Source: Desulfobacteraceae bacterium UBA2174 (lineage in GTDB: Bacteria > Desulfobacterota > Desulfobacteria > Desulfobacterales > UBA2174). Taken from it: DNA of 64,000 nucleotides. Within the stretch, counting starts at the first letter, position 1; each line of letters begins with the position of its first letter. The stretch is taken from the NCBI GenBank assembly GCA_002327445.1, contig DCWA01000022.1:44540-108539 (forward strand). Reading direction: 5' to 3'. The notes below the pieces were generated by a model that was given only the letters and a program-made list of their open reading frames with translations, did no database searches and was not told the DNA's origin. Positions 604-47,406 of the stretch are shown here, in pieces. Position numbers and translations under genes: made by a program.

Positions 604-611
604 GGGCCGGA

Positions 612-18641: not shown

Positions 18642-19424
18642 ATGGAGATTCTGGTTTGTATCAAGCGGGTGCCCGACACCTCGGAAAACGAGATCGCCCT
18701 CAACAGTGCGGGCAACGACATCGAACGGGACGATCTGGTCTATTCGGTCAATGAATGGGACAATTACGCCGTGGAAGAGGCCATTCAGATCGTGGACCGG
18801 GTCGGTGGCAGCGTGACGGTGGTCACGGTGGGCGACGACGAGTCCGAGGAGGTGCTGCGGCGGGAGATGGCCATGGGCGCCAACAAGGGCCTGCTGCTGG
18901 CCGATGACGCCTTCGCCGAGACCGACGGACGCGGCATCGCCACGATTCTCAAGGCCGCGGTGGCCAAGGGCACCTATGACCTGATTCTCACCGGCGCCCT
19001 CGCAGACGACGGCGCCGGGCAGGTGGGCGGCATGCTGGCCGCGATGCTCGACTACCCCTTTGCTTCGGTGGTGAACAAGATCGAAACCGTCAACGACAAG
19101 ACGCTGAAGATCGGCCGCGAGATCGAGGGCGGCAACCAGGAGATCAGCGAGATTTCGCTGCCCTGCGTGCTGTCGATCCAGACCGGCATCAACGAGCCGC
19201 GCTATGTCGGCATCCGTGGCATCCGCAAGGTGGCCTCGGTGGAGATCCCCACCCTGGCGGCGGGCGACCTCGGACTGGACGCCGCGGCCCTGGCACCGAA
19301 GGTCAAGCGCCTGGATTACTTTGTGCCCGCGCTGGGCAAGGGCGCCGAGATGCTGGAAGGCTCCACCGAAGAGATCATCGCCAAACTGCTCGAAATGCTC
19401 AAGGCCAAAGGAGGGCTGAAGTAA
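18642..19424 (+). CDS. etfB: Electron transfer flavoprotein beta subunit
   Basis: MEILVCIKRVPDTSE...NEWDNYAVEEA is the classic EtfB N-terminus. Confidence 0.93.
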   Translation: MEILVCIKRVPDTSENEIALNSAGNDIERDDLVYSVNEWDNYAVEEAIQIVDRVGGSVTVVTVGDDESEEVLRREMAMGANKGLLLADDAFAETDGRGIATILKAAVAKGTYDLILTGALADDGAGQVGGMLAAMLDYPFASVVNKIETVNDKTLKIGREIEGGNQEISEISLPCVLSIQTGINEPRYVGIRGIRKVASVEIPTLAAGDLGLDAAALAPKVKRLDYFVPALGKGAEMLEGSTEEIIAKLLEMLKAKGGLK

Positions 19425-20392
19425 TGGCACAGATCTTCGCATACATCGTTCACAAGAACGGCGTGGCCGACGATACGGCCCTGGAACTGCTCACCGCCGC
19501 CAAAAAGATCGATCCGGCGGCCTCCGTGACGGCCATCGTGACCGGTGAGGGTAGCGCGCTGGATGCCGTGGCCGGCCAGGTCGCCAAGGCCTACAACGAG
19601 GTGTGGAAATTTTCGGCTCCGGTGTTCGCCTATCCCAACGCGGAGGCGGTTCGCCCGCTGCTGGTCAAGGTGTTGCCGGCCGGTGCGATCCTGCTCGTGG
19701 CCCACGACACCTTCGGCATGGACCTGGCGCCGGGGCTTTCCATCAAGTTGAATGCGGCCCTGGTGACGGACGTGGTCGGCATTGAAGGCCTTGATGGAAG
19801 CACGCTGAAGCTGGTGCGCCAGGAATTCGGCGGGCAGGTGAGCACCCATGTGGCCGCCGACGTTTCCACCGGTGCCGTGCTGACTCCCCGGGCGGGTTCC
19901 TTCACCGCCGCCGAAGCGGCCGCCTCCGGCCCAGTGGTCGACAAGTCGGCCGAGGCGGGGGATCTGGTTGTCAAGCGGCGTTTCATCGAAGTGGTGGCCG
20001 CCGAGGTGGGTGATGTGGACATCACCAAGGAAGACGTGCTCGTGTCCATCGGTCGCGGCATCGAGGAGCAGGACAACATCGAGATCGCCCAGGATCTGGC
20101 CAAGGCCATGGGCGCGGTGGTTTCCTGCTCGCGGCCCATCGTGGATGCCAAGTGGCTGGAGAAATCGCGCCAGGTCGGCACCTCGGGCCAGACCGTCAAA
20201 CCGAAGGTCTATCTTGCCTGCGGCATCAGCGGATCGTTCCAGCATCTGGGCGGGCTCAAGGGCAACCCCTTCATCGTGGCCATCAACAAGAACGCCAAGG
20301 CCCCCATCTTTCAGGTGGCCGATGTGGGCATCGTGGCCAACATTCTCGAGTTCATGCCGGCATTGACCGAGGCGATCGAGGAAGGCAAATAG
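19424..20392 (+). CDS. etfA: Electron transfer flavoprotein alpha subunit
   Basis: 322 aa. The C-terminal FAD motif is PKVYLACGISGSFQHLGG...IVAINKN. Its start overlaps the etfB stop (TAATG). Confidence 0.93.
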   Translation: MAQIFAYIVHKNGVADDTALELLTAAKKIDPAASVTAIVTGEGSALDAVAGQVAKAYNEVWKFSAPVFAYPNAEAVRPLLVKVLPAGAILLVAHDTFGMDLAPGLSIKLNAALVTDVVGIEGLDGSTLKLVRQEFGGQVSTHVAADVSTGAVLTPRAGSFTAAEAAASGPVVDKSAEAGDLVVKRRFIEVVAAEVGDVDITKEDVLVSIGRGIEEQDNIEIAQDLAKAMGAVVSCSRPIVDAKWLEKSRQVGTSGQTVKPKVYLACGISGSFQHLGGLKGNPFIVAINKNAKAPIFQVADVGIVANILEFMPALTEAIEEGK

Positions 20393-21731: not shown

Positions 21732-22634
21732 ATGGCCACTGAAAAATCATCTGGTCGTCCGGTCGTCTATCGCACCCAACAAGATGAATGCGTTTGGAGC
21801 CAGGCTGGGGTCATCAAGCCGGTAAAATGCATCAACGCCTTCGATTGCCTCGGCTGCAGCTTCGACCGGAAGGTGCAGGAAGACTTCCAGGTGCGTGAAC
21901 GTGCCAAGGGAGAGACGAGCCTGGCCCACACCCCGCCGCGGCTGCGGATGCTGATCAAGGATCTCAAGTGCCGCCACATGCTCAGCGGGCGGGTGGCCTA
22001 CAAGCTGTGCGCCCACGGGTACAACTGTGTCAAGTGCCCTTATGACATGATGATCGAGGATACCGCCACCGCCGCTACCCTTTCTACTCCGGCCTTCGCG
22101 TACGTTTCCGGTTTCACCCTGGCACGGGACTACTACTACCTGCGCGGGCACAGCTGGGCCCGGGTCGAATACGGCGGCCGCGTGCGCGTCGGTTTGGACG
22201 ATTTCGCCCTGCGCCTCTTCGGGCCCCAGGATCGCATCGATCTGCCCGCCCTGGGGGATACGGTCGGCCAGAACCGCCCCGGGGCCGTTCTGAACCGGGG
22301 CCGCAGCCAGGCCGCGACCCGCAGCCCGGTGGACGGCAAGGTGGTGGCCATCAACCCGCGGATCGGGCGCCAGGCCGATACGGCCAACCAGGCCCCCTAC
22401 AACGAGGGGTGGATGATGGTGATCCAACCCTCCAACCTTCGAAAAAACCTGAAAAACCTTCTTTTCGGCGAGGAAAGCCTCGCCTGGATGGACGACGAGG
22501 CCGGACGCTTGAGCCGCAAGGTCAGCGCCACCGCCGGTTACGCCATGGCCGCCGCCGGTGGCGAGGTCATCGGCGACATCTATGGGACGGTACCCGGCCT
22601 GGACTGGAACGAGCTGGCCGAATCATTTCTGTAG
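21732..22634 (+). CDS. GcvH-like (glycine-cleavage H fold) protein with Cys-rich N-terminal extension
   Basis: The C-terminal half, HSWARVEYGGRVRVGLDDFA...SPVDGKVVAINP...APYNEGWMMVIQP, follows the GcvH pattern. The N-terminal 100 aa carries about 9 Cys (CINAFDCLGC, CAHGYNCVKCP). Confidence 0.7.
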   Translation: MATEKSSGRPVVYRTQQDECVWSQAGVIKPVKCINAFDCLGCSFDRKVQEDFQVRERAKGETSLAHTPPRLRMLIKDLKCRHMLSGRVAYKLCAHGYNCVKCPYDMMIEDTATAATLSTPAFAYVSGFTLARDYYYLRGHSWARVEYGGRVRVGLDDFALRLFGPQDRIDLPALGDTVGQNRPGAVLNRGRSQAATRSPVDGKVVAINPRIGRQADTANQAPYNEGWMMVIQPSNLRKNLKNLLFGEESLAWMDDEAGRLSRKVSATAGYAMAAAGGEVIGDIYGTVPGLDWNELAESFL

Positions 22635-26938: not shown

Positions 26939-27340
26939 TCATCCGTTGTCGCCAACGAAGCGGACATGCACCTGGCGCGACCGTGGGCCGTCGAATTCAC
27001 AAAAGAATATTCCCTGCCAGGTGCCAAGGACCGGTTTGCCGTCTTCCACCGCTACCCACAGGGAGGCACCGACCAGGGTCGCCTTGATATGGGCCGCCGC
27101 GTTGCCTTCCCGATGCCGGTATCCAGCCTCCCGGGGCACGATGCGCTCCAAGGCCGCCAGGATATCCGCCGCCACGTCCGGGTCGGCGCTTTCGTTGATC
27201 GTCACCGCCGCGGTGGTGTGGGGAACGAAGACCAGGCAGAACCCGTCGGTGGCGCCCATTTGCTTCAATGCACGGCCGACATCGGCGGTGATGTCGATAA
27301 ATTCCGATTTCTTTCGGGTTGTTACCTTGATGGTAGACAT
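26939..27340 (-). CDS. yjbQ: YjbQ/UPF0047 family protein (secondary thiamine-phosphate synthase fold)
   Basis: From MSTIKVTTRKKSEFIDIT: FVPHTTAAVTINE..DPDV..D and GNAAAHIKA are family signatures. Start at internal ATG 27340. Confidence 0.8.
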   Translation of the reverse strand: MSTIKVTTRKKSEFIDITADVGRALKQMGATDGFCLVFVPHTTAAVTINESADPDVAADILAALERIVPREAGYRHREGNAAAHIKATLVGASLWVAVEDGKPVLGTWQGIFFCEFDGPRSRQVHVRFVGDNG

Positions 27341-27355
27341 GACTGGGGCTCTGAA

Positions 27356-27390
27356 CGCAAAAAGGCCCTGCATTTGATGCAGAGCCTTTT
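27356..27390 (-). terminator. Rho-independent terminator after dsrC
   Basis: Minus strand reads AAAGGCTCTGCAT-CAA-ATGCAGGGCCTTT followed by TTTTG (13-bp stem, 1 mismatch). Confidence 0.8.
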
Positions 27391-27429
27391 GCCGATTTTC
27401 AGTGCGAATCTCGATGGACGCCGTTCCGA

Positions 27430-27747
27430 TCAGACGCACCCGGTCGGTTTTGGCAATCCCGCCATCTTGCAGGCTCCCTTTCCCGGTCCCGAGGGGAACA
27501 ATTCATAGATGTGCTTCAACTTGAAACCGGTGACCTTGGAAAGGACCCGAACCATGGGGGCGATACCGTTTTTCTCGTAGTACTCGCGAAGGGTCTTGAT
27601 CACCAGGCGATGCTCTTCGTTCAACTCGTCAATGCCTTCTTCCTTTTTGACGTACTGAACCCATTCCTCGGACCAGTTGGCGTAATCGTCAATGAATCCG
27701 TCTTCATCGACAGTAAAAGTCTTTCCGGAGAATTCCACTTGCGGCAT
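27430..27747 (-). CDS. dsrC: DsrC (TusE/DsrC/DsvC family) with both C-terminal-arm cysteines
   Basis: 105 aa ending ...PSGPGKGACKMAGLPKPTGCV. The penultimate Cys plus a Cys 10 residues upstream marks bona fide DsrC. Confidence 0.92.
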   Translation of the reverse strand: MPQVEFSGKTFTVDEDGFIDDYANWSEEWVQYVKKEEGIDELNEEHRLVIKTLREYYEKNGIAPMVRVLSKVTGFKLKHIYELFPSGPGKGACKMAGLPKPTGCV

Positions 27748-27808
27748 GACAACGTCCTCCTTCGATAGTGATTTTGTTTACGACTGGCATCCGGCCGATG
27801 TTTGAACC

Positions 27809-27837
27809 CTTATAAATTCATAATGTGCGATTATCAA
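27809..27837 (-). promoter_or_regulatory. Sigma-70-like promoter TTGATA-N17-TATAAG for dsrC
   Basis: Read on the minus strand: -35 at 27837-27832, -10 at 27814-27809, a counted 17-nt spacer, about 60 nt upstream of the ATG. Confidence 0.5.
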
Positions 27838-27914
27838 GCGAGTTTTTTAGCGGATATGCTCAACGAAGTCAACATGAAATTCATGCCCTCGACGCGGTTG
27901 GACCTTCCGGGGCA

Positions 27915-28757
27915 TCAATACTCCTTCGGCATTCCGTTGAGCTGCGCCAGGGTGAATACCGGGCCGTCCTTGCAGACGAAAAACTGGCCCACGTTGCAGT
28001 GGCTGCACATTCCAATGCCGCATTTCATCCGGTTTTCCAGACTCATGATGATGTTGTCATGGCCATAGCCACGGGCATCGAGCACCGGCTGGGTGAACTT
28101 GATCATGATCGGCGGACCGCAGATGATGGCATAGGTGTCCGCATCGGCTTCGGGCGCTTTCTGGTCCGTTATGGTGGGCACGAATCCCACGTTGTATTTC
28201 CAGTTGGGGTCGTTGGTGCCGTCCACGGTGATGTGCATGTGGATGTCGTCACGCGCCTCCCAGGCGGCCAGTTCGTCGCGGTAGAGCAACATGCCCGGGG
28301 TGCGGGCGCCGTAGATCACGTGAATCTGGCCGAAGCGCTGGCGGTTGGCCAGCATGTAGATGATGGAGGAGCGCAGCGTGGTGAAGGCGAAACCGCCGCC
28401 GATGATCACCACGTTCTTGCCCTCCAGGCGCTCCCAGGGGTACCAGTTTCCCAGGGGGCCGCGGATGCCCATCACGTCGCCGACCTTCATGTTGTGCAAG
28501 GCGGTGCTCACCACGCCGACCTTGTTGACGGTAAACTTCACGAAGCCCTTTTCGGTGGGCGAAGAGGCGATGCCGATGGGAATCTCCCCCTTGCCTGCGA
28601 TGGACAACTCGGCGAACTGTCCGGGATGATAGGCGAATTTTTCCTCATCGCCGGGGTTGAGGAAAGTGAATTTGAAGGTTTTTAAATTCTTGTCCTCGGT
28701 CTCGACGGTGATCTCGTCGATGCGAACCGGGTAGGGTAGATACGGATTTGGTTGCAC
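27915..28757 (-). CDS. flxA: FlxA-like FAD/NAD(P)H-binding oxidoreductase with [2Fe-2S] tail (AsrB / sulfhydrogenase-gamma family)
   Basis: 280 aa with a ferredoxin-reductase-type fold (RGPLG, VIIGGGFAFT) and C-terminal CGIGMCSHCNVG. Confidence 0.7.
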   Translation of the reverse strand: MQPNPYLPYPVRIDEITVETEDKNLKTFKFTFLNPGDEEKFAYHPGQFAELSIAGKGEIPIGIASSPTEKGFVKFTVNKVGVVSTALHNMKVGDVMGIRGPLGNWYPWERLEGKNVVIIGGGFAFTTLRSSIIYMLANRQRFGQIHVIYGARTPGMLLYRDELAAWEARDDIHMHITVDGTNDPNWKYNVGFVPTITDQKAPEADADTYAIICGPPIMIKFTQPVLDARGYGHDNIIMSLENRMKCGIGMCSHCNVGQFFVCKDGPVFTLAQLNGMPKEY

Positions 28758-28770
28758 GGGGCCCCCTTTA

Positions 28771-29835
28771 TCAAGCGACCTTGCAGGCGGCGTCTTGGCC
28801 GAAACGGTTCATCAATTGGCAAACCTTGCGGATGTCGATATTGACCGGGCAATACTGGATGCAGCGGCCGCAGCCGACGCACTGGATCCCGTCGCCGTAC
28901 TTGTCGACGTAGTACTTGAGTTTGTGCATGAAACGCTGGCGTACCCGCTGCACCTTCTGCCCCCGGGGGTTGTGACCGGAGCCGTGGAGGGTGAAGAGCG
29001 GGAACATGCAGCTGTCCCAGTTGCGCTCGCGGATGCCGTGCTTGCCGCGCACCTCGTCCTGAATGTCGAAACACCAGCAGGTGGGGCACAGGTAGGTGCA
29101 AGTGCCGCAGTTGATGCAAGAGAAGGCGATATCTTCCCAGAAATTTGCATCGTAGAGCGCCATTTGGGGAATCTCGGCCAGCCGGTCGGTTTCGACGGTG
29201 GAGGTGATTTTGGCTTCAGCGGCTTCCTTGCCCGCGGAAAAACAGCCCTCGCTGTCCGCCGGGGCTTCCGTGAACCAGCCGGCGGCGGCCAGGAATGCGG
29301 CGCCCTTGTCGGTGAGAATCTTGGCCAGATAGGCGTCACCGGCGTCCTGGAGCAGCACGTCGAGGCCCTGTTCACTGTAAGGCCCGCAGCCGGCACTGGT
29401 GCAAAAACAGGTGCTGCCCGGATGATCGCAGGCCAGGCCGATGAAGGTGGTGGCCTCGTAGTTGCGCAGCCAGTAGACGTCCTTGACATCCGGGGCGTCG
29501 AAGTTGCGGCGCACCAGCAGAAAGCTGTAGGCGTCGCAGGGCCGGATCCCCACCGCGGCGGCGGGCTTGGCCGGCGCCGGGGCTTCCTTGAGGACGTTGC
29601 CATCCGGATCATTGGGGTCCACGGTGTATTCGAAGAGGATTTCACTCTGGGGATAGACCACCGAACGGGCCGACATGCGGGTGTTGAGGCCGTCGAGGTC
29701 CGGCGCTTGTCCCGGCGCCAGAGCCGCGAAGTTGAGCATCGCGCCTTCCCTGACCGGTCCGAAGAGCCGGTAGGCCTTTTCGGCCGCTGCCAATCCCTGG
29801 GCCCATTGTGCCTTGTCGATGCGAATGTACTTCAT
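28771..29835 (-). CDS. flxB: FlxB-like iron-sulfur protein (AsrA / sulfhydrogenase-beta family)
   Basis: 354 aa with CINCGTCTYLCPTCWCF and CVGCGRCIQYCP clusters and an AsrA-like N-terminal region. Confidence 0.65.
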   Translation of the reverse strand: MKYIRIDKAQWAQGLAAAEKAYRLFGPVREGAMLNFAALAPGQAPDLDGLNTRMSARSVVYPQSEILFEYTVDPNDPDGNVLKEAPAPAKPAAAVGIRPCDAYSFLLVRRNFDAPDVKDVYWLRNYEATTFIGLACDHPGSTCFCTSAGCGPYSEQGLDVLLQDAGDAYLAKILTDKGAAFLAAAGWFTEAPADSEGCFSAGKEAAEAKITSTVETDRLAEIPQMALYDANFWEDIAFSCINCGTCTYLCPTCWCFDIQDEVRGKHGIRERNWDSCMFPLFTLHGSGHNPRGQKVQRVRQRFMHKLKYYVDKYGDGIQCVGCGRCIQYCPVNIDIRKVCQLMNRFGQDAACKVA

Positions 29836-29868
29836 GATGTTTGCGCCCTTGTCCTGGTATGGATTGGA

Positions 29869-30816
29869 TTACTTCATGAAATCCTGCGGGTCGTCGGGCC
29901 GGTAAGTGTCGAGCGGCGGACGCTGATCCAGCGACAGCCCCGCTTCCCAGCCCCACTGTTCGAAGGCTTCCTTTTCAAGTTTCTTGGTGAACACGCGCAT
30001 GTTGATGCCCATGGGACATGCCCGCTCGCAGGAGCCGCAGTCGGTGCAGCGGCCGGCGCAGTGGTAGGCCCTGAGAAAATGAAAGGTGCGCACATCCACC
30101 GGGTTCTGGCTCTTGCCGACCCACTGGGGCGTGCTCTCGTCGACGAAGCAGGTCGGACAGTAGCACAGCGGGCAGGCATTGCGGCAGGCGTAGCAGCGGA
30201 TACAAGGGGCCAGCAGGTTTTCGAAGTACGTCCACTTCTCCTCGGCGCTCATGGCCTCGATGGCACGCACGTCTTCATAGCGGTCCACGTTCTGCTGCTC
30301 CGGGACCGGATCGGCCACCAGTTCGTCATAGATCACCGGGTTGCGGTGGATGCAGACGGCGCAGTTGGCCTGGAGCATGTCCTTGCGCGGGTAGGTCTTC
30401 TCGAAGCCCGCGCCGCATACCCGGACGGACTCTCCGTCTTCCACCACCCGGGTGACTTCCCCCGGCGCCATGGCCTTGATGCGCCGCTTGTCGAGCATCC
30501 CCTTGCAGGGGACGCCGATGATGACGAGCTGCTCGCGTTTGATCTTGTTTTCGATGATATGGGTAACGATGTTGCGACTGTCACACCCCTTGGCGACCAC
30601 GGCGATCTTGTCGGTCCGGTTGGTGAGGTAGTTGGCCAGGTTGATGCCGCAGTTGCCATCCCAAATGAGGTGATCGACGTCGTCGACGTTCTTGATGAAG
30701 CAAGGCTCGTTCATCATCGGCATCGACCCGTTGCGAAACCCGATGACCGTTTCGACCCGGCAGTCCTTGAGCAGGCGCCTGGCGATGTCACGAATCTTGT
30801 CGGTATAAGCGATCAT
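29869..30816 (-). CDS. flxC: FlxC-like iron-sulfur protein
   Basis: 315 aa with CIRCYACRNACPLCYCPTCF and CTDCGSCERACP motifs. Its ATG lies 1 nt after the flxD stop. Confidence 0.6.
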   Translation of the reverse strand: MIAYTDKIRDIARRLLKDCRVETVIGFRNGSMPMMNEPCFIKNVDDVDHLIWDGNCGINLANYLTNRTDKIAVVAKGCDSRNIVTHIIENKIKREQLVIIGVPCKGMLDKRRIKAMAPGEVTRVVEDGESVRVCGAGFEKTYPRKDMLQANCAVCIHRNPVIYDELVADPVPEQQNVDRYEDVRAIEAMSAEEKWTYFENLLAPCIRCYACRNACPLCYCPTCFVDESTPQWVGKSQNPVDVRTFHFLRAYHCAGRCTDCGSCERACPMGINMRVFTKKLEKEAFEQWGWEAGLSLDQRPPLDTYRPDDPQDFMK

Positions 30817-30817
30817 G

Positions 30818-31249
30818 TCAGGCCACCTTCAGCTCTTTTTTCACGAATTTCTGGTTGGGGCCAACGGCCCGGACAGCCTCGGTCACCTTTTTGACGACAT
30901 CGACGAACTTGGTCGATTCGGCCGATGAGATCCAGGAAAAATGGACGCGGCCCGGTTCAACACCCATGTGCTCCAGCAGACTCTGCAGGAGGGCGAACTT
31001 GCGACGAGCGTAGTAATTACCTTCCAGGTAATGGCATTCGCCGGGATGTCACCCGGACACCCAAACCCCGTCGGCCCCTTCCCGCAGGGCGCCCAGGACG
31101 AATTTGGGGCTCATGCGCCCGGTGCAGGGAATCCGGATGACCCGGATGTTGGGCGGGTACTCCATCCGGCTGACCCCCGCAAGGTCGGCGGCGCCGTAGC
31201 TGCACCAGTTGCAGAGAAATGCGACAATTTTTGGTTCCCACTGAGACAT
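30818..31249 (-). CDS. flxD: MvhD/FlxD-like [2Fe-2S] protein, selenocysteine-containing (in-frame TGA at 31049-31051)
   Basis: The track ORF stops at ...GADGVWVSG. The same frame continues [43 protein letters not shown]... to the stop at 30818. The TGA replaces the Cys of the MvhD G-C-H-x-G-(D/E)-C-H-Y motif. AGGAG precedes ATG 31249. Confidence 0.8.
31016..31032 (-). other. SECIS-like hairpin 16 nt downstream of the flxD UGA
   Basis: RNA AUUACCU-GGA-AGGUAAU gives 7 complementary pairs (or 6 bp with a 5-nt loop), read directly. Confidence 0.45.
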
Positions 31250-31289
31250 TTCGAAATCTCCTTGAAGTTGCCGTTATAAAAACCGTTGC

Positions 31290-34200
31290 TCAGCTCGCCT
31301 CGTTGAGGGCGAACAGCTGGGCGAAGATCTGGTCCGTGTCGAATCCCTTGAGGCGGATCGCACCGCTGCGGCAAGAGGCCACGCAGAGCCCGCATCCCTT
31401 GCACAGCACCGGGTTGATCTCGGCCCGGCCCGGCCAGAAACGCTCAGTGGCCGCCCGGAACGAGGGCGCCGAGTACGGGCAGATCGACACGCACACCCCG
31501 CACATGCTGCAGAGGGCCGGGTTGACCTCGGCCACTTGGCCGATGGTGCTGATGTGCTGTCGCGCCAGGAGGGTGACGGCCCGGCTGGCGGCCGCCTTGC
31601 CCTGGCTGACGGCTTCGTCGATGGGCTTGGGGTAATGGGCCATGCCACAGAGGAAAACGCCGTCGGTGGCGAAATCGCAAGGCCCCAGCTTGGCGTGCTT
31701 CTCCACGAAAAAGCCGTCGTCGTTGAGCGGCAGCTTGAAAAACTGGGCCAGCGCGTTGTTGTCCGGCGCCAGAATGGCCGTTGCCAGCGAGATGAGGTCG
31801 GTGTCGATCTCCACCGGCCGTCCGAGGATCGGATCGGTGAGGCGCACCGTGAGGCGGCCGTTTTCAATGGATACCTTCGGTTTGGCCTCCAGACTGTAGC
31901 GGATGAAGATGACCCCTTTCTCCCGGGCCTCTTTGTACAGGTACTCGCGCTCGCCGTAGGTCCGGATGTCGCGGTAGAGGATGTAGACGTTGGCCTCGGG
32001 GTTGCGGGCCTTGATCGCCAGGGCGCTGTCGATGGAATGGGTGCAGCAGACCCGGCTGCAGTAGGGCCGCTCCGGTTCCCGGCTGCCGACGCACTGGATG
32101 AACACCGCCGCACCGAGTTCCTCAATGGCCGGGTCATCCGCCTTGAGCTTGGCATCCAGTTCCAGGCTGGTGACGATCCGTGAATCCTGCCCGTAGCTGT
32201 ACTCGGTGGGTACCAGGGGCACGGCGCCGGTGGCGATGATGGCCACCCCGTGTTCGATTACCTGCTCCTGAGCGCCGTTTTTCACCGTGGTCTTGAAGTT
32301 GCCCACGAATCCTTCGACGGCGCTGATCTCGCTGTTGAGGTGGGTCTGGATGTTGGGATCTCCGCTGACGTCGGCCACCAGTTGGTCGAGCCTGGCGGCG
32401 ACCGGGGCGCCGTCCGGGGTCTGGAAGAGGTGGCGGGCCTGGCCGCCGAGCAGGGCTTCGCGTTCCACCAGGTGGGTGGTATAGCCCTGGGCGCCCAGCG
32501 CCCGGGCCGCCGCCATGCCGGCGATGCCGCCGCCGATCACCAAGGCGGCCTGGTTGACGTCGAGCTGGGCCTCCTTGAGCGGCTGCATCAGGCCGACCTT
32601 GGCCACGGCCATGCGCACCAGATCCTTGGCCTTTTGGGTCGCCAGGTCGGGATTGTGCTTGTGGACCCACGAATCCTGGTTGCGGATGTTGCACATTTCG
32701 AAGAGGTACTTGTTCAACCCCGCCGCCATGAGGGTTTCCTGGAACAGGGCCTCGTGGGTCTTGGGGGTGCAGGCGGCCACCACCACCCGGTTGAGCTGCT
32801 TCTCCTTGATCACCTCCGCCATGCGGTCCTGGGTGTCCTGGGAGCAGGTGTAGAGGTTGTCGGTGGCGTATTCCACGTAGGGCAGGGTGGCGGCGTAGTC
32901 CCGCACCGATGGCACGTTAACCGTGCCGGAGATGTTGATGCCGCAGTTGCACACGAAGACCCCGATACGCGGCCGTTCGTTGAAGACGTTGACCTCGGGC
33001 ACCTTTTCGGGCACCACGGTGAGCGTGTCGCGGGCCGCGGCGAGGATCTCGCCGGCAGCGGCCGCCGCCGCACTGGCGTCCACCACGGACTGGGGGATGT
33101 CCCGCGGGCCCTGGAAGGCGCCGCAGACGAAAATCCCCGGCCGGCTGGTGGCCATGGGGGCAAACGGCGCGCTCTGGGCGAAGTGGCCCGGGGTGAGTTC
33201 GATGTCGAGGCGCTTGGCCAGTTCGACGGTCTCGGCGGCGGTCTGCAGGCCCACCGAGAGCACGATCATGTCGAAGGTCTCGGTTTTCAGCTCACCGGAT
33301 TCGGTGACGTAGCGGACCGCCAGGTCACCGGTGTCGCCGACCTTGTCGATGGTATGGACCCGGCTGCGGATAAAGCGCACCCCCTGGTCCTTGGCCTTGT
33401 TGTAGAAACGCTCGAAGTCCTTGCCGTGGGTGCGCATGTCCATGAAGAAGATGGCGCAGTCCAGGTCATCTCCGGCGTGCTCCTTGGCGATGACGGCTTC
33501 CTTGACGGCGTACATGCAGCACACCGACGAGCAGAAGCTGTTGTCGCAGCGGTTGAGATCGCGGGATCCAACGCACTGGAACCAGGCAATCTTCTTGGGT
33601 TCCTTGTGGTCGCCCAGGCGCACCAGGTGGCCGCCGGTGGGGCCGGAGGCCGACAGGAGGCGCTCCATTTCCATGGAGGTGATCACGTTGGGGAGTTTGG
33701 CGTAGGCGTAACTGTCGAATCTGGACGGGTCGAACGGCTCGAAGCCCGGCGCCAGGATCACGGCGCCCGTCTCCAGGGTGATCGTTTCCGGCTTCTGGCC
33801 GTGGGTTTCCAGGGTCACGGCGCCGGCCTTGCAGGCCGCCACGCACTGGTAGCACTCGCAGCACACCCCGCACTCCAGGCAGCGATGCGCCTCGGCCCGG
33901 GCCGTATTCTCGTCGTAGCCCCGCTGGACCTCGTTGAAGTTGGTCTTGCGCACTTCGGGCGCCAGCAGCGACATCGGATTCCGGGCGACGTGGGGCAGTC
34001 CATCGAGGGGCACGTCCTGGACCGGGGTCCAGTCGGTTCTGCGGCCGGCAAACAGGTCCTCGCCGCGGATGAAGCGGTCGATGGAAACGGCCGCTTCCTT
34101 GCCCGCGCCGATGGCCTCCACCACCGTGGCCGGACCGGTGACGGCGTCCCCGCCGGCAAAGATGTCCGGATCGCTGGTCTGCAGGGTGACCTTGTCCACC

Positions 34201-35741
34201 CGCATCGTGCCCCAGTCGTTCAGCGTGCAGGCGCACTCGTCGGTGAGGCAGGCCCAATCGGTTTCCTGGCCGATGGCCGGAATGATCGCGTCCACCTCGA
34301 TCTGAAACTCGGAACCCTTGATGGGCACCGGGCGCTGACGGCCGCTCTTGTCCGGGGGACCCAGTTCCATCTTGATGCACTCGATGGCCTTGACCACCCC
34401 GTTTTCGGCGATGACCCGGGTCGGATTGGTCAGGGTCATCAGCTCGATGCCTTCCTCGCGGCACTCCTCGATTTCCTCGGCATTGGCCGGCATCTGTTCC
34501 ACGGCCCGGCGGTAGATGATGAACGGCTTCTTGGATCCGGTGCGCAGGGCCGAGCGGACGCAGTCCATGGCCACGTTGCCGCCGCCGACCACCGCCACCC
34601 GGTCGCCCAGGTGAACGCGGTTGCCCAGGTTGATCTCGCGCAGGAATTCGACCCCGGGGTAGACGCCCTTGTAATCCTCCCCCTCGATGCCCAGGCGCTT
34701 GCACTCCTGGGCGCCGATGCCGATGAAAAACGCCTTGTAGCCCTGCTCGCGCAACTGACCGACGGTGAAATCCTTGCCGATTTCAACACCGGTCTTGAAC
34801 TCGACGCCCAGGTCCTTGATGACCTGGATCTCGGCCTCGGTGACATCCCGGGGCAGGCGGTAGGAGGGAATGCCCACGGTGAGCATGCCGCCAAGCACCG
34901 GCAGCTTTTCAAAGACCGTGACCTGATAGCCTTCGATGGCCAGGAAGTAGGCGCAGGTCAAACCGGCCGGGCCGGCGCCGACGATGGCGATTTTTTCCTC
35001 GCGCCGGGGCTTCTTGACCGGAACGTAGGGGTTGCCGCTGGCCCGGTCCGTGTCGGCCAGGAAGCGGTGGAGGTACATGATCCCCAGAGGGGAGTCCACC
35101 GCGTTGCGGGTGCAGGCGCTCTCGCACGGATGGGTGCAGACCCGTCCGCAAACCCCGGGAAAGGGGTGGTCCTGCTTGAAGAGTTCCAGGGCTTCGCGGT
35201 AACGACCGTCGTTGGTCAGGGCGATGAATCCCTGGACGCTGACATGCGCCGGGCAGGTGGCCCGGCAGGGGGCCGTGCCGCGTTTGGTGATGGCGAAGGC
35301 CCCGGGGATGGCCTGGGCGTAGCGACGGTGGGTCGCCTTGCGTTCGACCAGGCCCATGTCGTATTCGCTGGGCCGCCGGATGGGGCAGACTTCGGCGCAA
35401 TCGCCGCAGCCGGTGCACTTGGCGGGATCGATGAACCGGGGCTGCTTGTGGATCTGGACCTTGAAATGGCCCGCTTCGCCTTCGATGGATTCGACTTGGG
35501 AACAGGTGATCAGTTCGATATTGTTATGCCGGCCGACCTCGACCAGTACAGGGGAGATGATTCACATCGCGCAGTCGTTGGTCGGGAAGGTCTTGTCCAA
35601 CTGGGCCATGACGCCGCCGATGCTGCTCGATTTGTCGAGCAGATAGACGTAGTAGCCCGAGTTGGCCAGATCAAGGGCCGACTGCATCCCGGCGATGCCG
35701 CCGCCGACGACGAGAACCGAACCGATGACATCCTTGGACAT
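31290..35741 (-). CDS. hdrL: Giant HdrA-like flavoprotein (HdrL type) with inserted GltD/NfnB-like NAD(P)H module, selenocysteine-containing (TGA at 35562-35564)
   Basis: ATG 35741 follows AAGGAG. The N-terminus reads [64 protein letters not shown]... and is in frame with track ORF 31290..35357. The TGA replaces the second Cys of the HdrA FPTxDCxxC motif. Total 1483 codons. Confidence 0.85.
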
Positions 35742-36022
35742 GGGAGCACTCCTTAGCGATGAAATGCACGTTGCAGTTTTGTTGAAACATGGCGCCCGGC
35801 TGCGGACCGGGGACGCGAGAACGAAAGACCTACCTAACGGTTGGCGAAAAACTTGTCAATGAAATTCGGCTCTTCGAAAAGCGGGTCATCGGAGGGGGTT
35901 GCAGCGGGGCCGAAGCAAATTTAATATATAATTATAACATTAAGTTATATTGTCAACAAGAGAAAGCCGCCGCCCGCTTGCCACCCCGTTGGGGAAACGG
36001 TTAGGATGACCGGGCGTCGAGG

Positions 36023-40620: not shown

Positions 40621-41995
40621 ATGAAAGCCGCGCTGAAAGTGTTCGGATGGGTGTTGGCGGCCGTTTTCATCGTTGGCATCGGCGGGGGATCGGCGGAAAC
40701 CCTGCAGGATGCCATCGACCATGTGCTCAAGACAAACCCGGAAATTCGGGCGGACGCCTACAATCGGCTCGCCCGGGATCAGGAGGTGAAGAAGGCCGAA
40801 TCCGGCTTCTACCCCAAGGTGGACGTCACCAGCGGATTCGGGGTCACTGAACAGCGAAGTCCTTTTGAGGAGACCTTTTATCCGCGCTCGTCGGTCGTGG
40901 GCCTGCGGCAGAACGTCTGCAGCTTCGGCGTGACGACCAACGAGGTGCTGCGGCAGAAGGCCCGCGTCAAGTCCCGAGCCTACCTGATTCAGGCCAATTC
41001 GGAGCAGCTCTCCCTGCGCACCGCCAGAGCGTATCTCAATGTTCTGCGGGCGGAAGAACTTCATGGCCTGGCCAAGGAGAACCTACTCAATCATCAGCGC
41101 ATCTACGATCAGATGAAGCTGCGCAGCGAGTCCGGTGTGGAGCGCAGAGCCGACCTCGATCAGGTGATGGGACGGTTGGCCCTGGCGCAGTCCAACCTGG
41201 TGGTCACCCAGGCCAACCTCGAGGATGCCCGCACCGACTATCTCACCGTGGTTGGCACGGCCCCCGAGGCACTGCTCAAGCCGGACCCGATGGACGCCAA
41301 TTTCCCCAAGGACTTTCCCCAAGGACATGGATGAGGCCGTTTCCTTCGCCATGGAGAACTATCCGCTGGTCAAGTCCGCCAAGGCGGATCTGGAGGCCCG
41401 GGAGTTCCAGTACAAGACGGCCAAGAGCGACGCCTACCCCAAACTGGACGTGACGGCGGACTACCGCTGGGAAAATGACGTCGACCAGGAAGGCTACGCC
41501 GAAGAGTTTACCGCCGCGGCCCCCGTACGGTTCAATATTTTCAACGGCGGCTACGACCGGGCGCGGATCGCGGAGACCCTGCAGCAAATCAAGGAAGCCA
41601 AGGAAATCTACAACAGCACCGAGCGGCAAACGCGCCAGGCGATCCGCCTGTCCCGGGAAGCGTACAAAGCGGCCATCGACCGGACCGCCCACCTCAGGCA
41701 GTATGTGGAAGCGGCGGCCGTTACCTCGGATGCCTTCACCAAGCAATGGATGGTGGGGCGGCGCACCATGTTCGACGTGCTCGACAGCCAGGCCGAATAC
41801 ATCAACGCCAAGGCCGACCTTGTGGGCGCCGTGTATGACAAGTCATACTCCGAATACCGGGTGCTCAGCGCCATGGGGAATTTGGTGCACAGCCTCGGTT
41901 TGCAGTGGCCAGGGGAAAGCAGGGTGGACGTCACCGAAGAAAAGGGAATCGACGTCACGGTTCCCCTTGATCTGACCTACCACACCGCCGAATAA
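40621..41995 (+). pseudogene. lapE: TolC-family type I secretion outer-membrane protein (LapE-like), frame broken by a 13-bp tandem duplication
   Basis: Track ORFs 40621..41334 and 41225..41995 are the two halves. Deleting one 13-bp copy joins ...DANFPKD|MDEAVSFAMENYPLVK into a single 453-codon TolC-like reading frame. Confidence 0.8.
41301..41326 (+). repeat. Exact tandem duplication 2 x TTTCCCCAAGGAC (13 bp)
   Basis: Counted base by base at 41301-41313 and 41314-41326. It creates a stop at 41332-41334. Confidence 0.95.
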
Positions 41996-42047
41996 TCGCC
42001 CATTGGCGCAACGGCGCGTTCCCTTCAAAGTTAGACCGGCGGAGACC

Positions 42048-42779
42048 ATGAAACCGCCTGCAACCGGGGTCCGAACCATCGACGACCGCATCGGTCAAGG
42101 GGGATCCGGGTGCCTGATACGCCGGCGCCCGGCTCCTCTTGTCCTCATCCTCCTGATCTGCCTGGCTTTCGTCGGGCCTGTCGGGACCAGGGAAGCGTTT
42201 CTTCTCAGCCGGGAAGTTCTCAGGATGGCCGAGGTCAAATACGGTTCCGATGCCACCGAGCGTTTCGAGCGGTGGGAGAACCTCATCCGTGATGACGACA
42301 GCGCCCCCGAAAATGAAAAACTGAACCGGGTCAACGCGTTCTTCAACGAAACGGTGCGGTTTGTCGACGATGCCGATCTGTACGGGGTGGGAGATTACTG
42401 GGCCACCCCATTAGAGCTACTGGCCCGGCAGGCAGGGGATTGCGAGGATTTCGCCATCGCCAAGTTTTTCACCCTCAAGGCGCTGGGCGTGGCGGAAAAC
42501 AAACTCAACATCGCCTATGTGAAGGCATTGCGCTTCAACATGATGCACATGGTGGTGACCTACTACAGCCATCCAGGCGCCGAACCGCTGGTCCTCGACA
42601 ACCTCGTGGACGAGATCCACCCCTCCTCCCGGCGTTCCGACCTGATGCCGATCTTCAGCTTCAATGGCACCGGGCTGTGGCTGGCCAAGGAGCGGGGCAA
42701 AGGCAAAAATACCGGCAGCAGCCGCCGCCTGAAGGCCTGGGCGGATTTGCTGCAACGGATGGCGGACAACCCCCTGTAG
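42048..42779 (+). CDS. lapG: LapG-type periplasmic transglutaminase-like cysteine protease (BTLCP)
   Basis: YWATPLELLARQAGDCEDFAIAKFFTLKALGV...MHMVVTYY...VLDNL matches the LapG Cys-His-Asp core. An N-terminal signal-like segment is present; start uncertain. Confidence 0.85.
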   Translation: MKPPATGVRTIDDRIGQGGSGCLIRRRPAPLVLILLICLAFVGPVGTREAFLLSREVLRMAEVKYGSDATERFERWENLIRDDDSAPENEKLNRVNAFFNETVRFVDDADLYGVGDYWATPLELLARQAGDCEDFAIAKFFTLKALGVAENKLNIAYVKALRFNMMHMVVTYYSHPGAEPLVLDNLVDEIHPSSRRSDLMPIFSFNGTGLWLAKERGKGKNTGSSRRLKAWADLLQRMADNPL

Positions 42780-42795
42780 GCGGAGGGAAAGGCTG

Positions 42796-44766
42796 ATGAC
42801 ACTTTACCGCCAGCTTGTCGCTTTCACCCTTGTCCTTTTCCTGGTGCTTTTCACCGGCACCTGGATTGCCAGGCTGCAAACCACGCGCGCCTTTCTCGGC
42901 GCCCAGCTCGAATCCCACGCCCAGGATACGGCGACTTTTCTCGGCTTGTCCATCTCCCAGCAGATCCAGGATCTGAAAAAGGACCTCCCCGTCGCGGAAA
43001 CCATGATCGGCGCGGTTTTCGACCGCGGTTACTACCGGGTGGTCAAACTGGTGGACATCCGGCAGCGGGTCCTCGTGGAACGGGAGCTGGAGGTCAAGAT
43101 CGAGAACGTGCCGGATTGGTTCATCCGGATGTTCCCCCTGGAAACCCCCGAGGCTGGAGCCAATGTCATGGCCGGCTGGATGCAGGCCGGCACCCTGCTG
43201 GTGAAAAGCCACCCGGGCTTCGCCTACCGCACCCTCTGGCAGGATGCGCTGCGCATGGCCTGGTGGTTTGCCGCCTGCGGCGCATTCGTGCTCATTTTCG
43301 GGGCGGTCGGGCTTCGCCTGCTCCTGCGCCCCCTGGTGCGGGTCGAGCAGCAGGCTGAAGCGCTATGCCGCAAGGAGTATCGGCTTCAGGAACGCATTCC
43401 CCGGACCAAGGAGCTGCGTCGGGTGGTGGAAGTGATGAACCGCATGACGCGCAAGGTCAAGGAGATGTTCCAGGAGCAGGCCGCCCTGGCCGAAGAGATC
43501 CGCAAGGAATCCTACAGCGATGCCGTCACCGGCCTGGGAAACCGGCGCTACTTCGCCGGCCAGGTCGAAGCCCAGCTCCAAGGGCGGGTGAGCGATGCCA
43601 GGGGCGTTCTCCTGTTGGTGCAGATCCGCAATCTGGAGATGGTGAACCGGGAAATGGGAATGGCGGCCGGAGATGCGCTGCTCCAAAGAGCGGCCACCAT
43701 GATCCGTGAAGCCGCCGAGGCCCATGGACAGGCGGTGCTGGCGCGCCTGACCGGCGCCGATTTCGGGCTGTATCTGCCCGATACCCCGGGCTGGGTCGCG
43801 GAAACCCTGTCCAGCGGCATCACCGACCGGCTAAGCGGCCTCTTTACCGAGGGGGTTGCCCCGGAGGGGGATGTCGGACGCGTGGGCGCCGCCACCCATG
43901 AAACGACAGTAAGCCTGGGACGCCTGCTGTCGGAGGCGGACCTGGCCTTGAGAACCGCGGCCCGCTCCGGTCCCAATGCCTGGCATGCGCGTGCCGTTGC
44001 CAGGGAAAACGCCGGCACTCCCCAAGGTGAGCAGCAGTGGAAACTCGCCCTCGAACAGGCGCTGGAAGCGAACCGGATCCGGCTTTTTGCCCAGACGGTA
44101 GCATCCACCAAGGACCGGCAGCAGAAGCTCCACCTGGAACTGTTCTCGAGGATCGTCCAGGAAGACGGCGCCTTGATCAACGCCGGGATTTTCCTCCCCT
44201 TCGCCGAGCATCTCGATCTGGTGGCAAAACTCGACCGTCAGGTGCTGGAACTGGTCGGACGCCTGGATGCCGCACGCCTGGGCGTGACGTGGGTGGCGGT
44301 GAACCTGTCTCCGTCATCGCTGCGCGACGAAGGTTTCCACCAGTGGGTGGGGTCCTTTCTGGACCAGCTGCCGAAGGCATGCCCGCGCATCATTTTCGAG
44401 TTCCCGGAATTCGGCGCGGTCCGGCATCTCGATCTCGTCCAGGAATTCCGGGGGCGCGCCGAGAGCCGGGGGCATGCCATCGGTTTGGACCACTATGGCC
44501 GGGGTTTTTCAAACCTCGGCTACTTGCAGGCTCTGCGCCCCGAGTATGTCAAGATCGACCGGGCCTATACCGCCGAACTCAAGGACGAGCGGGGCGACAG
44601 CCGGTTTTTCATCAGTTCTCTCAGCGGCGTGGCCCACAGCATCGACATCGCGGTGATCGCCGAGGGAGTGGAGACGGAAGGGCAACTGGAGATTCTTGAA
44701 GGGCTTCCCGTCGACGGGATCCAGGGCTACCTGATTGACACGCCCAAGCCCCTGGAAGAGGCGTAG
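42796..44766 (+). CDS. lapD: LapD-type inner-membrane c-di-GMP receptor (LapD/MoxY N-domain, HAMP, degenerate GGDEF and EAL)
   Basis: N-terminal TM, a periplasmic domain with AGWMQAG...HPGFAYRTLW, then TM and HAMP. The GGDEF position reads GADFG and the EAL position reads ELF, both degenerate as in LapD. Confidence 0.85.
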   Translation: MTLYRQLVAFTLVLFLVLFTGTWIARLQTTRAFLGAQLESHAQDTATFLGLSISQQIQDLKKDLPVAETMIGAVFDRGYYRVVKLVDIRQRVLVERELEVKIENVPDWFIRMFPLETPEAGANVMAGWMQAGTLLVKSHPGFAYRTLWQDALRMAWWFAACGAFVLIFGAVGLRLLLRPLVRVEQQAEALCRKEYRLQERIPRTKELRRVVEVMNRMTRKVKEMFQEQAALAEEIRKESYSDAVTGLGNRRYFAGQVEAQLQGRVSDARGVLLLVQIRNLEMVNREMGMAAGDALLQRAATMIREAAEAHGQAVLARLTGADFGLYLPDTPGWVAETLSSGITDRLSGLFTEGVAPEGDVGRVGAATHETTVSLGRLLSEADLALRTAARSGPNAWHARAVARENAGTPQGEQQWKLALEQALEANRIRLFAQTVASTKDRQQKLHLELFSRIVQEDGALINAGIFLPFAEHLDLVAKLDRQVLELVGRLDAARLGVTWVAVNLSPSSLRDEGFHQWVGSFLDQLPKACPRIIFEFPEFGAVRHLDLVQEFRGRAESRGHAIGLDHYGRGFSNLGYLQALRPEYVKIDRAYTAELKDERGDSRFFISSLSGVAHSIDIAVIAEGVETEGQLEILEGLPVDGIQGYLIDTPKPLEEA

Positions 44767-44779
44767 AGACAACTTCGGG

Positions 44780-45115
44780 TCAAAGAATTTCGTCCACCAT
44801 CAGGCCGGGGTCGACCATTTTTGCACGGATTCTTTGACGAGCGGTGATTTTTTTCTGGACCTGCTCCGGCAGGTCGGTGAAGCGGATGACTTTCTTGTCG
44901 ATCAATACGTCGATCAGGTCCTCGATGGCCCGCACCAGGCCGGCGTCGGTCAGCGTCAGCAGGGACCGCACATCGGCCGGGTCCTGGACGGAGTCGAGAA
45001 ATTCGATCACCTCGTCGTCGATGCCGGGCTTGATCTCGGTGGCGGTGGCGGTTCTGTTTCTGGCGATCGCAACGATCCTGCCGTCCGGGTCGCGTTCGAC
45101 GTAAACCATGAACAT
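44780..45115 (-). CDS. Conserved-looking small hypothetical protein
   Basis: 111-aa ORF on the opposite strand between lapD and lapB, with normal-looking composition. The motif LVRAIEDLIDVLIDKKVIRFTDLPEQVQKKI reminds me of small proteins of unknown function; no function assigned. Confidence 0.5.
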   Translation of the reverse strand: MFMVYVERDPDGRIVAIARNRTATATEIKPGIDDEVIEFLDSVQDPADVRSLLTLTDAGLVRAIEDLIDVLIDKKVIRFTDLPEQVQKKITARQRIRAKMVDPGLMVDEIL

Positions 45116-45219
45116 TGTCTCCTGTGGGGATAGAGGTTGGCGTTTTTTAACACCATTTTTCTTTCTTTACCAATAGAAACGATCGACTTCAGAAGCGACG
45201 ACAGCCCAGATCGGATCAT

Positions 45220-47390: not shown

Positions 47391-47406
47391 ACGGGAGGAA
47401 GACAAA

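Follow-up and report, generated by a model that had tools for sequence, protein, structure and literature searches.

We report that the six-gene cluster hdrL-flxD-flxC-flxB-flxA-dsrC of Desulfobacteraceae bacterium UBA2174, situated in a 64,000-nucleotide stretch of contig DCWA01000022.1 (positions 44,540 to 108,539; this whole stretch is referred to as the window), is not exceptional and belongs to a widespread, biochemically uncharacterised HdrL/Flx family. Most relatives are without HdrB, the subunit supposed to reduce DsrC, yet the cluster is tightly co-organised with dsrC, and the ferredoxin site of the HdrA-type subunit is variably swapped for NADPH- or NADH-type modules. Our preferred reading, to which we assign a probability of roughly 40%, is that the gene products form a soluble, DsrC-linked bifurcating hub of an HdrBC-less Flx-Hdr family, where the CCG chemistry would be provided in trans, most plausibly by DsrK. 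To our knowledge, the route by which electrons from NAD(P)H reach sulfite reduction is unclear in complete-oxidising sulfate reducers, e.g. many Desulfobacterales.

All six genes are on the minus strand (Table 1), in the order and with the short spacers (1-40 nt) that the first-pass annotation had given for hdrL-flxDCBA. Specifically, hdrL, flxD, flxC, flxB and flxA are separated by 40, 1, 33 and 13 nt and flxA and dsrC by 167 nt, while the upstream region towards the divergent miaA, estimated at about 330 bp, measures 332 nt. The flxDCBA set directly follows the hdrA-type gene, FlxA has FAD, NAD(P)H and [2Fe-2S] domains, and FlxD is of the MvhD type, as in Flx-Hdr gene sets. In FlxABCD-HdrABC clusters an HdrB with two CCG domains and HdrC are encoded with HdrA; neither was found at the locus or within the 64 kb. 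Neither a search of all six reading frames for the CCG motif nor tblastn with one HdrB and one HdrE/C query taken from related loci detected hdrB or hdrC in the operon or the window, as had been claimed for the vicinity of hdrL; the only hit was an ETF-linked CCG protein. This sole CCG protein of the window (693 aa, Fer4 and CCG domains) is flanked by an acyl-CoA dehydrogenase gene and etfB/etfA. Together, the genes at 14306-20392 make up an oxidoreductase cluster of the ETF-linked, HdrD-like kind that fatty-acid oxidisers typically have, with no HdrBC pair; an ETF-linked HdrD/'HdrF' type has been described in Desulfobacterium autotrophicum (PMC2702500). Because of its acyl-CoA dehydrogenase/etfBA context the protein was dismissed as a partner of HdrL. 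The remainder of the window is housekeeping.

FlxC is highly conserved: a protein search with it returned 7251 proteins at E ≤ 1e-10, and FlxC relatives are present in at least 580 stretches of species-representative genomes (one genome per species). The counts given here are for the best 80 loci of these at least 580 stretches, classified by tblastn with the window proteins. By these numbers the module is no peculiarity of the window, and an HdrL-mvhD-dsrC arrangement had been described already in 2009 (PMC2702500). Nearly all surveyed loci are in metagenome-assembled genomes (MAGs) labelled Desulfobacterales, Desulfobacteraceae, Desulfosarcinaceae or Deltaproteobacteria, and one is labelled Syntrophobacteraceae. 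Carriers include the cultured Desulfosarcina widdelii PP31 (L085), which has the NfnB-insert form described below and provides a concrete target. Other carriers are MAGs with the assignments Desulfosudis oleivorans (here the form without insert), Desulfatibacillum and Desulfatitalea.

The hdrA-flxDCBA order is also found across the 80 related loci, and 51 of the 59 assessable loci have dsrC 117-323 nt 3' of flxA in the same orientation, so the adjacency to dsrC noted in the window is conserved among relatives. After dsrC there is usually yjbQ and then an AhbA/B-like (NirDL) gene. HdrB was found in only five of the 80 loci (L019, L054, L071, L072 and L080). Among HdrB-less loci with both flanks readable, dsrC is downstream in 35 of 38; for the HdrB-containing loci that can be judged, the corresponding number is one of four. 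Moreover, no hdrBC was detected within 10 kb in main-clade loci with readable upstream sequence. These data caution against annotating HdrB-less clusters as canonical Flx-HdrABC. As a separate observation, L018 (2448-6030) and L028 (5-1525) have an extra hdrA-mvhD pair directly 5' of hdrA-flxDCBA, giving two consecutive tandem-HdrA genes.

In the five HdrB-containing loci, which are paralogous (L019 at 378-3000), a NarI-like membrane domain (PF02665, 26.6 bits) is fused to HdrC-like clusters and precedes an HdrB with two CCG domains. Both stand 5' of a tandem hdrA with flxD and flxC, and with flxB and flxA where the contig extends. The fusion together with HdrB resembles a DsrMK/HdrED-like module, and the loci would be a membrane-anchored version of Flx-Hdr. 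Since these five loci have a DsrMK-like module of their own, the HdrA/Flx core can apparently work with such a partner.

That HdrB and HdrC (or HdrD) encoded elsewhere in the genome join HdrL-FlxABCD in a stable complex of the canonical Flx-HdrABC type, and reduce DsrC at their CCG clusters, we consider unlikely. Desulfobacterales reportedly have many hdr paralogues (hdrACB and several hdrD in D. autotrophicum, PMC2702500; hdrA2BC in D. multivorans, PMC5109826), the window itself encodes one, unrelated, CCG protein, and an interaction of DsrC with FlxABCD-HdrABC is reported for D. vulgaris in the title of Ferreira et al. 2023. However, when subunits form a stable complex, their genes can usually be found side by side in at least some genomes, and here none were seen within 10 kb in the main-clade loci with readable upstream sequence. 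The CCG protein of the window is embedded in its acyl-CoA dehydrogenase/ETF cluster, and HdrA of the HdrB-containing loci is clearly more distant (54-56% identity, compared with 65-77%), which suggests a different docking surface. In D. vulgaris the contact with DsrC is reportedly made through HdrB.

Domains were assigned using Pfam and NCBIfam profiles with curated cut-offs. HdrL matches HdrA models in four separate stretches, and a GltD/NfnB-like block (Fer4_20 and Pyr_redox_2) covers residues ~155-560 by family match. On alignment to the solved HdrA of M. thermolithotrophicus (5odc_A; Table 1), HdrL is predicted to be a tandem HdrA, the first unit of which has an NfnB-type module inside its ferredoxin-reducing domain. 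The insert is placed between HdrA residues 291 and 293, i.e. between both cluster motifs of the inserted-ferredoxin domain. It matches solved NfnB (4ylf_B, 1.6e-99; 5jca_L, 1.2e-91) and has a gltA score of 369 bits, under the curated cut-off of 471.75. Its Rossmann motif, as read from the window translation, is GGGNVA (GXGXXA) followed by YRR, a combination also present in nine other NfnB-type loci, and judging from these residues the nucleotide motif is of the NADPH type. The proposal that FlxA and the NfnB/GltD-like insert are two distinct modules for pyridine nucleotides is thereby backed by domain matches. The HdrA/GltD-type fusion, the predicted selenocysteine (Sec) and the mvhD-type flxD that starts 40 nt downstream are those of an HdrL.

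The two HdrA units of HdrL differ. Lys409 and Glu356 are taken as the signature of bifurcating HdrA (PMC12054007); unit 1 (MEMER and CCMYAVK) retains their equivalents, whereas unit 2 (LELDA and CCTHSID) has Asp at both positions and has lost the signature. Likewise, the bifurcating pattern of Lys409/Glu356 with CVGSR...C..VCC is present in unit 1 and missing from unit 2. HdrA of type II (tandem) and type III (GltD-inserted) from methane-metabolising archaea resemble HdrL in their two thioredoxin-reductase-like units, their GltD insert and K409/E356, and a GltD insert beside the inserted ferredoxin domain has been proposed to shut out ferredoxin and bring in NAD(P)H instead (PMC12054007, 2025). 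Unlike these types, the window HdrL unites tandem and insert in one chain; moreover, its insert motif is GXGXXA (NADPH) and not GXGXXG, and its partners are Flx and DsrC and not Mvh or Fdh-like proteins.

Turning to the Flx subunits, FlxA comprises FAD_binding_6, NAD_binding_1 and a DHOD-B-type [2Fe-2S] domain. The NCBIfam scores of FlxB (ShyB, 139 bits with a cut-off of 690; AsrA, 123 with 323) and FlxA (AsrB, 179 bits with 289; HydG, 195 with 650) are far under the curated cut-offs, and neither asrC nor hydrogenase genes were found in the locus. The possibility that these subunits are AsrAB or sulfhydrogenase beta-gamma paralogues of known function, raised at the outset as an objection, was ruled out by these scores and the missing catalytic partners. 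The solved chain nearest to FlxB is the beta subunit of P. furiosus sulfhydrogenase I (9nez_B, 9e-35), while the C-terminal ~100 residues of FlxC match FdhB of the Fdh-Hdr supercomplex (7bkb_E, 3e-20). An AlphaFold model of FlxC from a shallow alignment has low confidence (pLDDT 57), and its top folds are FdhB, FrhB, Fsr and HCAR chains at TM scores of only 0.24-0.34, which is no more than a hint of the FdhB/FrhB family. Among solved structures no chain was close enough to the queried FlxB, FlxC and HdrL to come from a Flx-Hdr complex. Finally, DsrC scores 111.9 bits with TIGR03342 (cut-off 53.5), 7e-36 with PF04358 and 65.5 bits with TusE (cut-off 191). It ends GAC93KMAGLPKPTGC104V, i.e. with a Cys-X10-Cys-Val terminus in which both arm cysteines are kept, in agreement with its initial designation as a bona fide DsrC.

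Among the related loci, the large Hdr gene has three forms (52 loci): 21 have no insert, including the five with HdrB, ten have the NfnB insert and 21 have a gap of ~3.2 kb. The 16 HdrB-less loci in the first group encode a tandem HdrA without insert, and dsrC is downstream in 12 of them; in one (L022) the ferredoxin domain is intact on reading. In the gap loci examined, L015 (3283-9430), L053 (3140-9328) and L083 (3335-9537), the N-terminal ~125 residues of HdrA with the Sec codon are a separate small open reading frame. Next come NuoE-like and NuoF-like genes, and then the remaining tandem HdrA, to which a [2Fe-2S]/NuoG-N-terminal domain is fused. The NAD(P)H module would thus be exchangeable at or near one HdrA position, the Flx genes and dsrC being constant. 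BamE-I of class II benzoyl-CoA reductase combines tandem HdrA-like and MvhD-like selenoproteins with a NuoEFG-like NAD+ module, and the NuoEF variant of the 21 sister loci is presumably reminiscent of it. HdrL-type proteins 59-65% identical to that of the window are also found in other contexts. In L087 the neighbours of HdrL are another HdrA, an Fe-S protein and a gene for an AFOR/BamB-like tungsten enzyme, and in L089 HdrL is near an MTHFR (metF) gene; the window is without BamB/BamC and has FlxCBA instead. With partners such as these, HdrL appears to be a portable NAD(P)H-coupled module.

Exchangeable modules of this kind would also suit an Nfn/Stn-like transhydrogenase hub without a direct role for DsrC, where FlxA binds NAD(H), the NfnB-like insert NADP(H), and the remaining ferredoxin-type clusters of HdrA exchange electrons with ferredoxin (net: NADH + reduced ferredoxin + 2 NADP+ <-> NAD+ + oxidised ferredoxin + 2 NADPH); dsrC would be a neighbour by inherited gene order. 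This is the main rival of our preferred reading, and we regard it as doubtful. As in NfnAB, there is an NfnB-like module (FAD, two [4Fe-4S], NADPH), whose matches to solved NfnB were given above, and FlxA is a PyrK/NfnA-type FAD-[2Fe-2S] protein. In 21 loci the insert gives way, close to its own position, to NuoE-, NuoF- and NuoG-N-like modules, building blocks that other bifurcating NAD(P)H enzymes employ as well; this replacement, the portability of HdrL and the presence of unrelated genes in the synteny block point in the same direction. Unlike in NfnAB, however, the two modules are on different subunits, separated by FlxB, FlxC, FlxD and two HdrA units, and score under the cut-off. Furthermore, the 16 insert-less HdrB-less loci are without the NfnB module. 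With no second NAD(P)H module in these loci, 12 of which keep dsrC downstream, transhydrogenation cannot be the common function of the conserved core. A combination of NuoEF (NADH) and FlxA (NADH) also makes little sense unless FlxA is NADPH-specific, and the arrangement of terminators around dsrC, described next, argues for a functional unit.

Promoters were identified by phylogenetic footprinting, the flxA-dsrC spacer set consisting of the window and 51 loci. Footprinting was adopted since a generic scan had detected neither of the two conserved promoters nor the terminator after dsrC. All 52 flxA-dsrC spacers contain TTGAC(A/T)-N17/18-TAnnnn preceded by a T-rich element, in the window as TTGACT (27872-27867) and TAAAAA (27849-27844). 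TTGATA-N17-TATAAG, first taken as the dsrC promoter, does exist (27837-27809); it is not conserved, lies within the predicted 5' untranslated region of dsrC and gives way to the conserved TTGACT-N17-TAAAAA element. Upstream of the operon, a TTGAC-type promoter is positioned 105-255 nt 5' of the hdr start in 40 of 47 loci, and in the P1 alignment ATTGACAAG is invariant. The near-consensus TTGACA-N17-AATTAT (35956-35928) from the generic scan was dismissed as the operon promoter because it is not conserved in relatives. Present in the window alone, this site lies 5' of the conserved hdrL promoter, overlaps the palindrome TATAAC-N5-GTTATA and could serve as a promoter or operator specific to the strain.

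The strong terminator assigned to dsrC from the start was borne out (-23.3 kcal/mol, z = -3.4), and GGCCCTGC-loop-GCAGGGCC with a T-run follows dsrC in 48 of 51 loci. Between flxA and dsrC we found no convincing terminator: the hairpin in the window has z = -0.38 compared with shuffles, a weak hairpin with a T-run precedes the dsrC promoter in only 12 of 52 spacers, and most T-runs are the promoter's own upstream element. Since no significant terminator separates the two genes, dsrC is not transcriptionally insulated, and together with the conserved terminator after dsrC this makes co-transcription with hdrL-flx by read-through likely. The simplest reading of these signals is one unit with an internal promoter, P1-hdrL-flxDCBA-P2-dsrC-T. 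The claim that dsrC is independently transcribed accordingly stands in so far as the gene has its own conserved promoter, and fails in so far as the sole conserved terminator is shared with the upstream operon.

In the dsrC leader a GGC-N4-6-GCC stem-loop is located 42-61 nt 5' of the start; 41 of 52 loci have it, where shuffled sequence would give 0.24, and in some of the others GGTC...GACC takes its place, which looks compensatory. The element may affect the stability or translation of the dsrC mRNA. The yjbQ (UPF0047) gene has a GTG start at 27439 that overlaps the dsrC stop codon and an alternative ATG at 27373 inside the descending arm of the dsrC terminator, and public gene calls disagree. 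No Rex operator (TTGTGAA-N6-TTCACAA, with at most three mismatches) was found in the window, and an Rfam scan of 26200-36200 gave no meaningful match.

Both hdrL and flxD are intact only when their in-frame TGA is read as Sec. Among related loci the HdrA-site codon is TGA at 45 of 49 sites and TGT/TGC in the rest, the FlxD-site codon is TGA in 69 of 73 and otherwise encodes Cys, and the residue of solved HdrA aligned to the HdrL Sec is Cys. Both sites have Cys together in L007, L019, L054 and L080. Hairpins resembling a Sec insertion sequence (SECIS) are present downstream; none has a significant z-score, and Sec is therefore argued from the codon/Cys alternation. On this basis we accept HdrL and FlxD as predicted selenoproteins. 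In identical metagenome contigs gene callers break hdrL and flxD at the Sec codons, and the proteins are therefore systematically mis-annotated. As for the closest relative in the species collection, L007 (HdrL 79-87% and DsrC 96% identical), TGC is present at both Sec positions, and the Sec/Cys switch would therefore be very recent and have affected both genes together.

The Sec centres, or the second HdrA unit, might themselves be the site at which DsrC is reduced, making the complex an HdrB-independent DsrC reductase. That dsrC is closely and selectively linked to the HdrB-less form, and that Sec is retained at both positions in about 92-95% of the sites scanned, would fit such a non-CCG site. 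We nevertheless find it very improbable, as HdrA and MvhD of methanogens have these Sec/Cys positions too and function together with HdrBC. Among the HdrB-containing loci, L019, L054 and L080 use Cys and L071 and L072 use TGA at the HdrA site, and Sec therefore does not track the absence of HdrB. A special Cys pair in HdrL unit 2 was considered as the DsrC site and rejected: the extra unit 2 cysteines of the window, compared by eye, are absent from L019 and L053.

For the DsrC-linked hub that we prefer, the flow of electrons may be sketched as follows. Flavin sites predicted from sequence number at least three (FlxA, HdrL unit 1 and the NfnB insert), in addition to many Fe-S clusters and two Sec, and HdrL unit 2 and FlxC may add further flavins. 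NADH would be oxidised at FlxA (FAD, [2Fe-2S]), and FlxB, FlxC and the MvhD-type FlxD would relay the electrons to the FAD of HdrL unit 1; we infer this route by analogy with Mvh/Fdh-MvhD-HdrA and the Desulfovibrio proposal. Ordinary HdrA uses the inserted ferredoxin domain to reduce free ferredoxin. In HdrL the domain is interrupted by the NfnB/GltD-type module, and this branch would therefore be wired to NADP(H) in place of ferredoxin. A third branch would run through the non-bifurcating unit 2 and the C-terminal di-cluster domain to the DsrC cycle, where the disulfide or trisulfide chemistry would be carried out by a CCG protein encoded outside the operon, most plausibly DsrK of DsrMK(JOP). 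Which way the electrons flow, which acceptors form the pair and which CCG protein acts in trans are likewise what we infer.

An exit linked to DsrC is suggested by three lines of evidence. The 16 insert-less HdrB-less loci, with one NAD(P)H site each, need a high-potential acceptor, and DsrC is their only conserved redox neighbour (12 of 16); no terminator separates flxA from dsrC; and the paralogous HdrB-containing clusters bring a DsrMK-like module of their own. Several points weigh against this interpretation. No catalytic site for DsrC is encoded, no main-clade locus has an adjacent CCG protein, and what would tie this clade to DsrC is genomic linkage only. Functionally unrelated genes, miaA, yjbQ and the AhbA/B-like gene, are also in the synteny block, and the adjacency could therefore be inherited gene order within one bacterial order. 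HdrA with two pyridine-nucleotide sites would alone suffice for an Nfn-like transhydrogenase, and a strong own promoter is expected for a dsrC needed in far larger amounts for DsrAB.

A bolder version of the DsrC link makes reduction of DsrC-trisulfide, direct or docked on DsrMK, the exergonic half-reaction that drives NADH-dependent reduction of NADP+ in a distinct bifurcating enzyme of the Desulfobacterales that carry the cluster; the sister variants would instead drive reduction of ferredoxin, or of NAD+ by way of NuoEF. We judge this distinctly improbable. If true, it would energy-couple NADH-to-NADPH transhydrogenation to sulfite respiration, and it would be the missing soluble NADH-to-DsrC link of complete-oxidising sulfate reducers.

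FlxABCD-HdrABC of Desulfovibrio (Pereira et al. 2011; Ramos et al. 2015; summarised in PMC4215793 and PMC5539420) has, like the window, flxDCBA after hdrA with the same subunit types and order, and Hdr/Flx is proposed there to couple NADH oxidation to reduction of DsrC and ferredoxin through flavin-based bifurcation (PMC4215793). In contrast, the window has no hdrB/hdrC, has a tandem HdrA with an NADPH insert, encodes HdrL and FlxD as predicted selenoproteins and includes dsrC in the unit. HdrL was named in 2009 in D. autotrophicum HRM2, where it was described as a selenoprotein that fuses heterodisulfide reductase to glutamate synthase and has an NADH-binding site (Strittmatter et al., PMC2702500). 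In the HdrL1 cluster of that strain, as in the window, the Sec-containing fusion is next to mvhD with dsrC downstream, and electron transfer from NADH to sulfite was proposed. The paper lists 'dsrA, dsrB and dsrC' after mvhD, where the window has flxCBA and then dsrC. As FlxB and FlxA are AsrA/AsrB-like and the dsr genes are reportedly scattered in the HRM2 genome, we suspect that this 'dsrA/dsrB' is the AsrA/AsrB-like flxB/flxA and the arrangement the same. In Syntrophobacter fumaroxidans, HdrABC/HdrL (Sfum_0819-0824) was detected only with sulfate available and was speculated to reduce DsrC (PMC5947623). There HdrL is likewise with MvhD and an Fe-S protein, but hdrABC is adjacent and no flxCBA is described, the reverse of the window. 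In work on Seep-SRB and other Desulfobacterales the cluster goes by the name 'Flx-Hdr', and DsrC reduction is drawn by analogy to Desulfovibrio (PMC5539420, PMC5947290, PMC10553843). In the literature searched we found no explicit statement that the Desulfobacterales form is mostly without HdrBC, that the cluster shares a terminator with dsrC, or that the ferredoxin site alternates between NfnB-like and NuoEF-like modules. The question of the acceptor for an Hdr without HdrB is real and now sharper, yet the idea is not new.

Table 1. Positions of genes, protein segments and predicted signals in the window
Feature	Position	Strand	Remarks
hdrL	31290..35741	minus	1483 aa; open reading frame with one in-frame TGA; predicted tandem HdrA with NfnB/GltD-like insert
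HdrL aa 8-154			HdrA 145-291; start of FAD fold and first cluster motif of inserted ferredoxin domain
HdrL aa 155-626	33864..35279	minus	insert without HdrA counterpart; NfnB/GltD-like NADPH module (predicted)
HdrL aa 627-854			HdrA 293-517
HdrL aa 922-1477	31311..32978	minus	second HdrA unit; Fe-S domain, second FAD fold, C-terminal 2x[4Fe-4S] domain
HdrL aa 922-1094			HdrA 2-174; N-terminal Fe-S domain and second FAD fold
HdrL aa 1341-1477			HdrA 514-647; C-terminal di-cluster domain
HdrL Sec codon	35562..35564	minus	in-frame TGA; TGA/Cys alternation among relatives; Cys in solved HdrA
Candidate SECIS-like hairpin	35529..35546	minus	16 nt 3' of hdrL UGA; weak evidence, z = 0.11 compared with shuffles
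flxD	30818..31249	minus	143 aa; MvhD-type [2Fe-2S] selenoprotein (predicted); PF02662 3.3e-54; VhuD-like in NCBIfam
FlxD Sec codon	31049..31051	minus	in-frame TGA, VSG-U-HPGECHY; TGA/Cys alternation among relatives
flxC	29869..30816	minus	315 aa; Fe-S protein, putatively of FrhB/FdhB lineage; Fer4_8
flxB	28771..29835	minus	354 aa; HydB/AsrA-like Fe-S protein; Fer4_22
flxA	27915..28757	minus	280 aa; GTG start; PyrK/HydG/AsrB/NfnA-type fold
dsrC	27430..27747	minus	105 aa; Cys93 and Cys104 in C-terminal arm
miaA	36074..37006	plus	divergent from hdrL
hdr-flx promoter P1	35831..35859	minus	(GAATTTCA)TTGACAAG-N15-TAGGTA = TTGACA-N17-TAGGTA; footprinting
TTGACA-N17-AATTAT	35928..35956	minus	near-consensus; generic promoter scan
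dsrC promoter P2	27844..27872	minus	TTGACT-N17-TAAAAA with T-rich element upstream; equivalent in 52/52 spacers
TTGATA-N17-TATAAG	27809..27837	minus	present, not conserved
Stem-loop in dsrC leader	27786..27796	minus	GGC-N5-GCC
Intrinsic terminator after dsrC	27350..27392	minus	hairpin 27392-27357 and U-run
yjbQ	26939..27439	minus	GTG start
Acyl-CoA dehydrogenase gene	14306..16126	plus	
Fer4+CCG protein	16314..18395	plus	
etfB/etfA	18642..20392	plus	
GcvH/lipoyl-type protein	21732..22634	plus	300 aa
Lap-like cluster	41225..48768	plus	

Two further features of the window were recorded. The 300-aa protein listed in Table 1 has a GcvH/lipoyl-type domain only at residues 135-249, and its N-terminal 134 residues have no family match. 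A Lap-like adhesin-control and type I secretion cluster comprises genes for an outer-membrane efflux protein, a BTLCP (C93) peptidase, a LapD-like GGDEF-EAL receptor, an ABC transporter and an HlyD-family protein.

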